Source of the DNA: Escherichia coli
Lineage (GTDB): Bacteria; Pseudomonadota; Gammaproteobacteria; Enterobacterales; Enterobacteriaceae
Assembly: GCF_003334335.1 (NCBI RefSeq)
Contig: NZ_QOWQ01000045.1
Reading direction: 5' to 3' (one strand)
Length of the DNA: 33,803 nt
Shown here: one piece after another, positions 30,001 through 33,803 of the stretch
How positions within the stretch are numbered: the first letter of the stretch is position 1
Layout of the letters: each line of letters begins with the position of its first letter
Program-made: the position numbers

Positions 30001-33000
30001 TGGTATGAAAACCACCTACGGCATGTCGAAAGGTAAAGGTCTGGCTTATGAACCCGCAACCAAAGGACAGTGGCCGGAAGAGCAGCTGTGGTCGACGGAG
30101 AAATACCTCGATTTCATGCCGAAATTGTTTGACGCGGTACGTAACAAGTTTGGTTTTAATGAACATTTGCTGCATGACATGCACCATCGCTTAACGCCTA
30201 TTGAAGCGGCGCGCTTTGGTAAAAGCATTGAAGATTATCGCATGTTCTGGATGGAAGACCCGACGCCTGCGGAAAACCAGGAATGCTTCCGTCTCATTCG
30301 CCAACATACCGTCACACCCATCGCAGTGGGTGAAGTCTTCAACAGCATCTGGGACTGCAAACAACTGATTGAAGAGCAACTCATCGATTATATCCGCACC
30401 ACGCTGACCCATGCAGGCGGAATTACCGGTATGCGCCGGATTGCCGATTTTGCTTCGCTGTATCAGGTACGTACTGGCTCACACGGTCCTTCCGATTTGT
30501 CACCAGTCTGCATGGCTGCGGCGCTGCACTTTGATCTGTGGGTCCCCAATTTCGGTGTCCAGGAATACATGGGTTATTCCGAACAAATGCTCGAAGTCTT
30601 CCCGCACAACTGGACTTTCGATAACGGCTATATGCATCCGGGAGACAAACCGGGTCTTGGTATCGAATTCGATGAAAAGCTGGCGGCGAAATATCCCTAT
30701 GAACCTGCTTATCTACCAGTCGCACGTCTGGAAGATGGCACGCTGTGGAACTGGTAAGGAGTAAGATAATGAAAAGCATATTAATTGAAAAACCGAATCA
30801 ACTGGCGATTGTCGAACGTGAAATACCCACCCCGTCAGCGGGTGAAGTACGAGTAAAAGTGAAACTTGCCGGAATTTGTGGTTCAGATAGCCATATTTAT
30901 CGTGGGCATAATCCTTTTGCGAAATATCCGCGCGTCATTGGTCATGAATTCTTTGGCGTCATTGATGCAGTGGGTGAAGGCGTGGAAAGCGCCAGAGTCG
31001 GTGAACGTGTTGCTGTCGATCCGGTGGTCAGCTGTGGGCATTGCTATCCGTGCTCTATAGGTAAACCGAACGTTTGTACGACACTGGCTGTATTAGGTGT
31101 GCACGCTGACGGTGGTTTCAGTGAATATGCCGTGGTTCCGGCAAAAAATGCGTGGAAAATTCCTGAAGCAGTGGCCGATCAATATGCGGTAATGATCGAA
31201 CCTTTTACCATTGCGGCTAACGTAACCGGACATGGTCAACCGACTGAAAATGATACCGTTCTGGTTTATGGTGCCGGTCCAATCGGCCTGACGATCGTTC
31301 AGGTATTAAAAGGCGTCTATAACGTTAAAAATGTGATTGTTGCCGATCGCATTGATGAACGACTGGAAAAAGCGAAAGAGAGCGGGGCTGACTGGGCGAT
31401 TAATAACAGCCAGACACCGCTTGGCGAGATTTTCACTGAAAAAGGCATCAAGCCGACATTAATTATCGATGCGGCTTGTCATCCTTCTATCCTGAAAGAG
31501 GCCGTAACGCTGGCTTCTCCAGCGGCACGTATTGTATTGATGGGGTTCTCCAGTGAACCGTCTGAAGTGATTCAGCAAGGAATTACCGGAAAAGAACTCT
31601 CTATTTTCTCTTCACGCTTAAATGCAAATAAATTCCCGATCGTTATCGACTGGTTAAGTAAAGGGTTAATTAAACCAGAAAAATTAATTACCCATACGTT
31701 TGATTTCCAGCATGTTGCTGATGCCATTAGTTTATTTGAACAGGATCAAAAACATTGCTGCAAAGTCTTACTCACTTTTTCTGAATAATACCAATAACGG
31801 CGAGTAAGTAGTACGCATCTTACCTCTTTTTTAGAGATAACCATTATGACAATAGAAAAACACGAAAGAAGCACTAAGGATTTGGTGAAAGCAGCAGTAT
31901 CGGGATGGCTGGGCACTGCGCTTGAATTTATGGATTTCAAGAGCCATGCGTGTTAACTATTTGATAAATATTAAATTAATTTTTCATTGCTTCGTTATGG
32001 GGCATGGTTGGGGCAAACTCGCTTAACTGTGTATTTAACAAAGCTACCTGTGCATTATTGTTTTCAGACATCCATTTTCCGTATACCTGAAATACCATTT
32101 GCGCATCTGCATGGCCCATCTGGTTTGCTATAAATGCCGGGTTAGCACCAGCTGTCAGCGACCAGCAGGCATAAGTATGTCTCGACTGATATGATTTTCG
32201 ATGGCGGAGTCCGGCACGTTTTATCGCTGCGTCCCACATCTGCCTTATTGAGTCAACGGTAAAATGGTCACCATAATTTTTTACTCTCGCTGACACTTCA
32301 GGTTGAAAAACAAAGGTGCATTTTTGTTTTTCTGTTCTGCCATACTCTCTGAGGTGAACATCAATGATATGCTCTTTGCTCAGTCTCGTTAATGTCATCT
32401 GACTCCGGAGAGCGTCGATTGCTGGCTTAATAAGATGAATGACCCGATTGGTTCCCGCCTGTGTTTTTGGTACCGTGAAACGGTCTTTTGCTAAATTTCT
32501 CCTGATCATCATTGTTCCATTTTTCAGATCTATGTCCTCCCATCCAAGTGCACACAGCTCACCAGGGCGAACTCCAGTATAAACAGAAACACACCATAAA
32601 TTTTTTGCTTGCTGATTTCTGCACGCATCGATAAGACGGATAAATTCTTCCCGCGAAAGAGGATCCGGAATGGTTCTTGATTCCTTTAATGGCGAGATCC
32701 CCTTAAACGGATTATCTGCCAGGTAACCGTTATCAACACCAAACTGGAACACGGCGTTAAGATTTGTCATGTAATTATTTACAGTTACAGCCGATCTCCC
32801 TGGTTGTGTAACAATATAGTTACTTTTGGGGATCTGGTATCCAGTCAGTAACTCTTTACGAACCTCCAGTAATTTTTCTTTATTAATCGATGAGGCAAGA
32901 TTTTTTTCACCGATTATGCTCAGGATATTTTTGATGACGGCACGGTATGTGTTGAGTGATGTTTTGGCGACTTCAGTTTCTTTCAGTGCCAGAAATTTTT

Positions 33001-33803
33001 CAGCCAGTTCTTTTATGGTTAAATCTTGTCGGGCCTCACCAAATTTTTCCAGATTGCGTGAGGAGGGAAACTGTTTTGCATAGTCGAAAACACCAGTTTT
33101 TATTGCGTAACAAACAGAGGAGCGTAGTTCACCTGCAACGCGCCTGTTTTTTGCTGTGTCAGGAACCCCCAGATTTTCCCTGACTCTTACGTCTTTATAA
33201 ACAAACCAGATACGTAATTTCCCTCCATGGTTTTCCACGCCTGTCGGATATTTCATTTCAACTTCTCTCATTAGTTAGTGTGGCTTTTAGTCAAGTAAGA
33301 TGACGTCTTGGTCTCGCTGATGCCTGGCGCTCAATCCAGCGATCAATTTCTTCCAGGTTGTAAAAGCATGGACTGTTATCCCATGGCATACCGTCATGAG
33401 CGACATGCTTATATTCCCTTCCTTCCATAAACGATTTTTCCCGGGCCTTTTTTAACGTACCTTTTTTTATTCCTTTCAGCGCAATTAACTGCTCTTCGGA
33501 TACCCATTTGCCGGGAGAGACAATCATGATTACTTCGCTCATCGATTTCTTTATCTCTTACATCAGACGAGCGCCGGTTGCAGAATACCAGTCACAACCG
33601 GCGACAGTTGAACATTAAGAATCAGCCTGACTCGGGATCAGTTTTTGCCAGATAACTGAAACGTATTTTGCCTGGTAACGGGCGTCATCAAGTGCATTAT
33701 GGCGCTCACCTTCGAATGGAATAGCCGTTCTGGCATCGAAGTCTATGGCTTTCCCCAGCTCAACGATTGTGCGTACATCGCGATCGTTGTAGTAACGCCA
33801 CGG

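Follow-up and report, generated by a model that had tools for sequence, protein, structure and literature searches.

A Qin-type prophage end with an intact integrase gene at the ydfJ locus of an Escherichia coli contig

Prophage Qin of Escherichia coli K-12, which interrupts the gene ydfJ, has decayed from a type of phage that lives on in wild E. coli, as has already been published for the phages mEp460_ev081 and Tritos. Tritos, the third prophage of the adherent-invasive E. coli (AIEC) strain LF82, is induced spontaneously (2.8e6 genomes/mL), forms plaques on MG1655 hsdR- and is a siphovirus by transmission electron microscopy (PMC9928086), and mEp460_ev081 is described as a functional temperate Qin-like phage with dicA, dicB, dicF and rem (bioRxiv 10.1101/2023.04.14.536235). 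The circular attP junction of a ydfJ prophage has been amplified by polymerase chain reaction (PCR) from the O26:H11 strain 11368, and the sequenced PCR product of the excised circle revealed an att of 18-19 bp (PMC8112680, S7 Fig legend). A prophage at the Qin site, ranging from 11 to 97 kb, was reported in 48% of 638 strains (PMC6379469). Here, a stretch of 33,803 nucleotides from E. coli contig NZ_QOWQ01000045.1 (RefSeq assembly GCF_003334335.1), referred to below as the window, was examined at its right-hand end, where an original prediction made from the sequence alone had placed a second, Qin-type prophage in ydfJ.

The segment 31939-33803 is very probably one end, attL, of a lambdoid prophage of the Qin type (mEp460/Tritos/PhiR42_1-like) that has integrated site-specifically in ydfJ. 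The original prediction interpreted this common and well-described locus correctly, and the finding is not new.

Insertion in ydfJ and kinship with Qin-like phages

The int-xis-exo module (31940-33803) was found to share 99.0-99.9% nucleotide identity with four deposited phage genomes, PhiR42_1 (GenBank accession number PV340562.1), Tritos of AIEC LF82 (OV696610.1), mEp460_ev081 (LR597641.1) and HannyBb (PP925841.1), and the attP core of these phages agrees with the junction found here. However, they are complete phage genomes of 45-49 kb, while the window reaches just 1.9 kb into the element. PhiR42_1 differs from the window at one nucleotide in 1864, and its Int and Xis proteins are 100% identical. 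Compared with Tritos, and likewise with mEp460_ev081, the window Int shows 4 differences in its 426 residues, none of them catalytic, and Xis is identical in Tritos, mEp460_ev081 and PhiR42_1. The isolation origin of the phages was inferred from the host fields of the GenBank records, which name ECOR13 for PhiR42_1 and MG1655 for PhiR5_2, a phage related to the neighbouring prophage described below. The only paper located for phages with such names employs a panel of temperate phages written PhiR40.1, PhiR47.1 and so on (PMC13190303 and its preprint).

The Qin prophage of K-12 MG1655 (intQ', b1579; ynfP; ydfJ) was 99.85% identical to the window over 31840-33135 (2 mismatches in 1296 nt), with the same insertion point in ydfJ, corresponding to the annotated Qin boundary, and the same ynfP chimeric open reading frame (ORF); the placement of a Qin-type prophage in ydfJ was thus borne out. 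The homology ends at 33135, and a remnant of IS2E is found in K-12 at the position equivalent to 33136. In K-12, int consequently lacks its first 121 nt (40 codons), which encode most of the arm-binding domain, xis is gone entirely and the exonuclease gene (pseudogene ydfE) has lost its 3' part, though the rest of the intQ frame is open. The statement that the K-12 integrase is a pseudogene was therefore correct. All three regions are intact in the window. Both the ydfJ core site and an intQ-homologous int were found, as in other members of the Qin-type (ydfJ-integrating, mEp460-like) lambdoid prophages. Further genes and sites of the type, namely dicA/dicC/dicB-dicF, relBE, hokD, rem, csp genes, lambda-like late genes and attR, are present in PhiR42_1 and in E. 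coli strain G8, which is 99.975% identical to the window over 21594-33803.

Among 5426 complete E. coli genomes, 2294 covered at least 80% of a query extending from the 3' end of rspB through ynfP, int and xis to the 3' end of the exonuclease gene. Identity reached 100% in the best matches, nearly all of which were annotated with an uninterrupted 'site-specific integrase'. The exact 426 amino acid (aa) Int was found on at least 1000 contigs, as was the exact 83-aa Xis, and approximately 2011 genomes cover at least 80% of the reconstructed empty site (attB, below). With thousands of genomes and the phages on deposit matching it at 99-100% nucleotide identity, the pattern seen at this prophage end is not due to chance. 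The integrase had been described as apparently intact. It is indeed intact, but wild strains ordinarily have it so, as do most occupied ydfJ sites, K-12 being the decayed, degenerate case.

The position of the junction was examined in a three-way comparison of the attL in the window, the attP of Tritos and PhiR42_1 and the attR of strain G8. The rspB gene ends at 31788, and the next ATG opens the chimeric ORF listed in Table 1, in which the first 31 codons encode the YdfJ sequence MTIEKHERSTKDLVKAAVSGWLGTALEFMDF. Its counterpart in MG1655 is ynfP (b4534), which adjoins the annotated boundary of the 'cryptic prophage Qin'. Identity between the window and the phages starts directly after ATGGATTTC, and identity between the phages and attR stops at the same 9 bases. 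When 31846-31938 was joined to the G8 sequence past the attR core, an in-frame major facilitator superfamily (MFS) transporter was obtained (MTIEKHERSTKDLVKAAVSGWLGTALEFMDFQLYSLGAALVFHEIFF…), and the reconstructed 599-nt attB was found with 100% identity, in a single piece, in many genomes that carry an intact annotated ydfJ beside rspB. As the reconstructed ydfJ reads in frame and the attB matches genomes with an empty site, the junction is placed at 31938/31939, and the fusion of an N-terminal ydfJ fragment to prophage DNA that had been predicted at ~31939 was therefore located correctly.

The 9-bp ATGGATTTC (31930-31938) is identical in attL, attR, attB and the PhiR42_1 attP, with flanks that match only imperfectly. 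For this element, the attB junction is expected to read GCGCTTGAATTTATGGATTTCCAGTTATATTC and the attP junction CCTGTGAATTATGGATTTCAAGAG, and an attR past the window end would read …CCTGTGAATTATGGATTTCCAGTTATATTCGC…, followed by the 3' part of ydfJ. The overall similarity among the att sequences, TGAATT(T)ATGGATTTC(C/A)AG, fits the att of 18-19 bp determined for ydfJ prophages (PMC8112680).

Table 1. Features at the ydfJ prophage end of the window
Feature	Coordinates	Strand	Basis or remarks
ynfP-like chimeric ORF, 36 codons	31846-31956	+	31 YdfJ N-terminal codons (31846-31938), 5 phage-derived codons (KSHAC) and stop
attL core region	31923-31941		TGAATTT-ATGGATTTC-AAG; three-way attL/attP/attR comparison
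Start of phage P' arm, core to int stop codon	31939-31975		One base differs from PhiR42_1 attP (31944, C for T)
Integrase, 426 aa	31976-33256	-	In-frame alternative upstream ATG at 33271 gives 431 aa
Two direct TGGGGCA heptamers, candidate arm-type Int-binding sites	31998-32004, 32009-32015	+	Inside int 3' end
Excisionase (recombination directionality factor), 83 aa, DUF1233 family	33291-33542	-	Pfam, PHROG
Exonuclease gene 3' end, last 62 codons and stop	33615-33803	-	823-aa protein; gene continues past window end

The TGGGGCA heptamers are suggestive of arm-type Int sites, though the statistics of the cluster are weak. The 4-kb PhiR42_1 locus has three exact copies, none of them more than ~140 bp away from the att core (two in the P' arm and one in the P arm), and the P arm holds two more copies with one mismatch each. 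With one mismatch allowed, 13 copies were found over the locus and 10.2 were expected, which is not above chance. A 21-nt core-like repeat (32046-32066), 86% identical to the attP core region, belongs to a family of two copies and may be a chance occurrence.

The chimeric ynfP-like ORF (31846-31956) retains the ydfJ promoter and start codon. A scan of 31700-33803 for promoters and terminators returned nothing exceeding the shuffled expectation, and an Rfam scan gave no match in the region of the ydfJ prophage end.

The integrase, excisionase and exonuclease genes

The integrase was found to carry an N-terminal Arm-DNA-bind_2 domain (PF12167; E 8.5e-22, residues 4-67) and a catalytic Phage_integrase domain (PF00589; E 8.4e-18, residues 201-392) in Pfam, along with weak SAM-like core-binding matches, and it matched the PHROG 1 integrase at 3.5e-75. 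It is identical to RefSeq WP_000876958.1 as annotated in G8 and in E. coli GDSC2BY4G. No frameshift was present in the integrase, and the long form (432 codons) is identical throughout to the PhiR42_1 integrase, confirming that a full-length tyrosine recombinase of 426 aa is encoded. The catalytic residues R230 (in TGVRPGE), R359, H382 (in MGHAD) and the nucleophile Y392 (in QVYGKW) are in register. The claim that an intact R...HxxR...Y set is present needs one correction, as no literal HxxR occurs and the sequence reads Y-Q-S-R-H.

In full, box II of the integrase is K-S-Y356-Q-S-R359-H360-T, with Tyr356 at the usual position of the first His of HxxR. In the HMMER alignment to the Tn1549 Int, SYQSRHT stands opposite PHAMRHT. 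In a four-way alignment, the PhiR5_2 integrase has a canonical HDLRHT, and IntR of the Rac prophage has YHTRHT (PYHTRHT), with the same Tyr as the window integrase. As Rac IntR shares this Tyr and the integrases of PhiR42_1, Tritos and mEp460_ev081 agree with the window at all catalytic positions, Tyr356 is best read as a variant of the integrase lineage and not as a defect. A pairwise MAFFT alignment with lambda Int set H308 opposite H360 and left R311 unpaired. This pairing was dropped as a one-residue misalignment because the HMMER alignment to Tn1549 and the four-sequence alignment both pair RHT with RHT. In the IntQ/IntR lineage, Tyr replaces the first His (YQSRH and YHTRH; int codons 356-360, window 32191-32205), and one residue is added between the second His and the nucleophile Tyr.

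The xis gene shares the strand of int and starts 34 nt upstream of it. Its product matched the Pfam DUF1233 'putative excisionase' family (PF06806) at E 1.9e-31 over residues 5-73 of 83, and the PHROG 539 excisionase at 1.4e-35. The last 62 aa of an 823-aa exonuclease in G8 are identical to the translation of the partial gene at the window end. The C-terminal domain of this 823-aa protein is an Rv2179c-like 3'-5' exoribonuclease domain (PF16473; E 5.2e-67, residues 642-813), with a weak RNase_T match, and the H-x4-D Exo III motif of the DEDDh domain, HNALDD, falls within the window part, while the Exo I and Exo II motifs are located past the window end. The prediction of a gene in the xis position followed by the 3' end of a DEDDh exonuclease gene was thus correct on both counts.

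A RecE/exodeoxyribonuclease VIII label for the 823-aa protein was rejected. NF007259 scored 281.6 bits against a cut-off of 1269, covering profile positions 271-600 of 877 only, and the protein is RecE-like in its middle region only, the C-terminus being a DEDDh domain and not the RecE nuclease. As the NCBIfam cut-off is missed widely and the nuclease domain is of another kind, the name 'exonuclease VIII' in several phage and RefSeq records is a misnomer, and the annotation is inconsistent.

Rac IntR/XisR of K-12, the closest among the K-12 paralogues compared, has 44% identity, the same domain layout, a YxxRH box II and the same longer His-Tyr spacing. However, the att site of Rac is in ttcA, and recET is found beside xis in place of the DEDDh exonuclease. 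The order att, int, xis and recombination/exonuclease genes on a leftward operon is shared with lambda, as are a heterobivalent integrase with an arm-binding N-domain and a P' arm that overlaps the 3' end of int. In contrast, identity to lambda Int was ~19-25% (two MAFFT alignments), the arm-binding domain of the window integrase belongs to another family (PF12167), Tyr occupies the position of lambda H308, and there is one added residue between the second His and Tyr. The Xis also differs from that of lambda in being a DUF1233 protein encoded by a gene that does not overlap int, and attB is ydfJ rather than gal-bio.

Prospects for excision and phage production

Integration is proposed to have occurred by lambda-type recombination of the phage attP with an attB at codon 29-31 of ydfJ, the MFS-transporter gene. 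The heterobivalent Int, with its arm-binding N-domain and R230, R359, H382 and Y392, would recombine across an imperfect core of ~18-19 bp in which ATGGATTTC is exact, and ydfJ was split by this event, giving rise to the 36-codon chimeric ORF (ynfP). In excision, Int and the adjacent DUF1233 excisionase, presumably with host bending proteins, would act on attL and attR, and ydfJ would be restored. As Int and Xis are identical to those of PhiR42_1 and nearly identical to those of the plaque-forming Tritos, the recombination module is that of living phages. Judged by its sequence, the integration/excision module is almost certainly functional, and the integrase is predicted, from its identity to the PhiR42_1 Int and near-identity to the Tritos Int, to be active in recombination on its own att sites.

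The suggestion that the element may still be excision-competent is reasonable for this module, as Int and Xis equal those of PhiR42_1, but for the copy examined here the decisive sequence is past the end of the window. It is probable that this copy can excise and doubtful that it still forms infectious phage, both of which hinge on sequence past the window, where attR, the DicA/DicC/Rem control region and the late genes are located.

Some points weigh against the reading of this region as the end of a prophage with a working recombination module. The window holds no more than 1.9 kb of the element, and attR, the immunity region and the morphogenesis genes lie past 33803. Tyr356, found where the canonical HxxR has its first His, would be worrying if taken by itself, but it is shared by Rac IntR and by functional phages. 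GDSC2BY4G, which is 100% identical to the window over 31700-33803, has a degraded remnant of ~21 kb in which the exonuclease gene is truncated and the replication genes and most head and tail genes are lost, so that the presence of int and xis in intact form is no guide to whether the phage is complete. A weak and indirect point is that, in the phage collection, no phage under a 'PhiR5' name has this int module, and PhiR5_2 matches the neighbouring prophage at 100%; if the window and PhiR5_2 come from the same host, then the ydfJ element was not recovered there.

It may well be that the element is a grounded remnant that has kept int, xis and attL but is otherwise deleted or riddled with insertion sequences (IS), and that no phage is produced. 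Excision might then yield only a dead circle, or might not occur, for example if attR or the induction circuit is gone. The identical 2.1-kb end on the ~21-kb remnant in GDSC2BY4G fits this, as do K-12 Qin, which is another remnant, the spread of Qin-site elements from 11 to 97 kb across strains (PMC6379469), and the nearest relative, G8, in which lom and the side tail fibre gene (stf) have been damaged by IS and deletion. The G8 element is 49 kb and collinear with PhiR42_1 at 97-99.98%; its lom carries ISEc12, its side tail fibre gene has suffered deletions, and ~0.9 kb is absent from the early region. However, the genes for head, tail, lysis, replication and immunity all carry annotations as intact in G8, PhiR42_1, with which the element is collinear, is plaque-forming, and the damage falls in genes that lambda can dispense with, lom and the side tail fibre genes being dispensable in lambda. 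Moreover, remnants with intact Int, Xis and both att sites are still expected to excise.

The integrase could also be the first member of a tandem cluster of prophages at ydfJ, as in O157:H7 and O26:H11, with heterogeneous excision products. Prophages of E. coli strains that produce Shiga toxin (STEC; O157:H7, O26:H11, O111 and O177) occupy the same chromosomal locus with the same short att of 18-19 bp and include PPydfJ clusters of 2-4 lambdoid prophages (PMC8112680), and the element at the ydfJ site reaches 97 kb in O26:H11 strain 11368 (PMC6379469). Such an arrangement is improbable here, as in the closest genomes, G8 and GDSC2BY4G, there is a single element with attR directly before the 3' part of ydfJ, and no sign of an STEC background was seen in the window. 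Unlike the element described here, the STEC PPydfJ prophages are often clustered, carry type III secretion system (T3SS) effector loci or secondary attB sites, and have many integrases inactivated by IS. No T3SS effector loci or secondary-attB cargo of the PPydfJ type were visible in the window.

For the strain, reading the region as the attL end of a Qin-type prophage means that ydfJ is interrupted and that the element, with intact Int and Xis at attL, may be mobile. The value of the locus lies mainly in its correct annotation, and it adds no test beyond those possible with the isolated phages.

PhiR42_1 also carries a transposase or mobile element protein gene (11567-12880) that corresponds to the ISNCY family pseudogene remnant of the G8 element (L004 10887-11909). 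As PhiR42_1 is propagated on a host, a transposase remnant of this kind is not by itself a sign of a defective Qin-type prophage.

The neighbouring prophage and the 10.3-kb interval

The strain carries an unrelated prophage 10 kb away that is 100% identical to a deposited phage genome. This first prophage (1-21593) ends in ynfG, an 84-nt 5' fragment of which (~21611-21694) is located beside the prophage end, and 10.3 kb of core genes (21594-31938) separate it from the element in ydfJ. Two independent prophages ~10 kb apart had been predicted, and the interval agrees. The right-hand 21.6 kb of phage PhiR5_2 (PV340546.1, 61.5 kb) matched the segment 1-21593 with 100.0% identity, and the Stx (Shiga toxin) phages POCJ13 and 75/02 Stx with ~91%. 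The ynfG gene is a published (Stx1-phage) integration site of POCJ13 / 75/02 Stx-type phages (PMC5447701, PMC10562709). Of 5426 complete genomes, only 58 carried the first prophage at coverage of at least 80%, which suggests that the strain that yielded PhiR5_2, or one closely related to it, is the origin of the window. Over 1-22000, the complete genome that matched best was again G8, with 99.0% identity and an extra IS1.

The PhiR5_2-type integrase has 22% identity to the window integrase and, with its canonical HDLRH box, is of a different type. No homology was found between 1-21593 and 31939-33803, and a comparison of 1-21593 with the whole Qin-type element of G8 gave a single lom fragment of 86 nt at 73% identity. 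The two prophages are unrelated occupants of two known att sites (ynfG and ydfJ) that happen to be close together, and these comparisons revealed no shared homology by which the interval would be especially recombinogenic. The claim that the region is a recombination-prone hotspot was not upheld, since there are only two separate known att sites and no useful homology between the visible part of the first prophage and the Qin-type element.

It is conceivable, though highly improbable, that both prophages, which have the same orientation and are only 10.3 kb apart, are inducible simultaneously, and that in-situ replication or packaging begun before excision could amplify or co-mobilise ynfEF-speG-rspAB. 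If true, this core segment would be subject to lateral or specialised transduction.

Several further features of the first prophage were observed. At its right end, two matches to the Rfam family sRNA-Xcc1 (RF02221) above the gathering score (20672-20757 and 21206-21294, both on the minus strand; 73 and 69 bits) adjoin the antA/antB antirepressor genes. A 2789-aa ORF is located at 8817-17186 (plus strand), and its homologue in G8 bears the annotation of an LPD38 domain protein, one of the large polyvalent phage proteins. After it come a Panacea-domain gene (17337-17861) and an IbrB-like and PAPS-reductase (3'-phosphoadenosine-5'-phosphosulfate reductase; IbrA-like) pair at 17950-19805 (minus strand). 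In G8, a gene with a YadA C-terminal domain lies directly upstream of the position equivalent to the start of the window.

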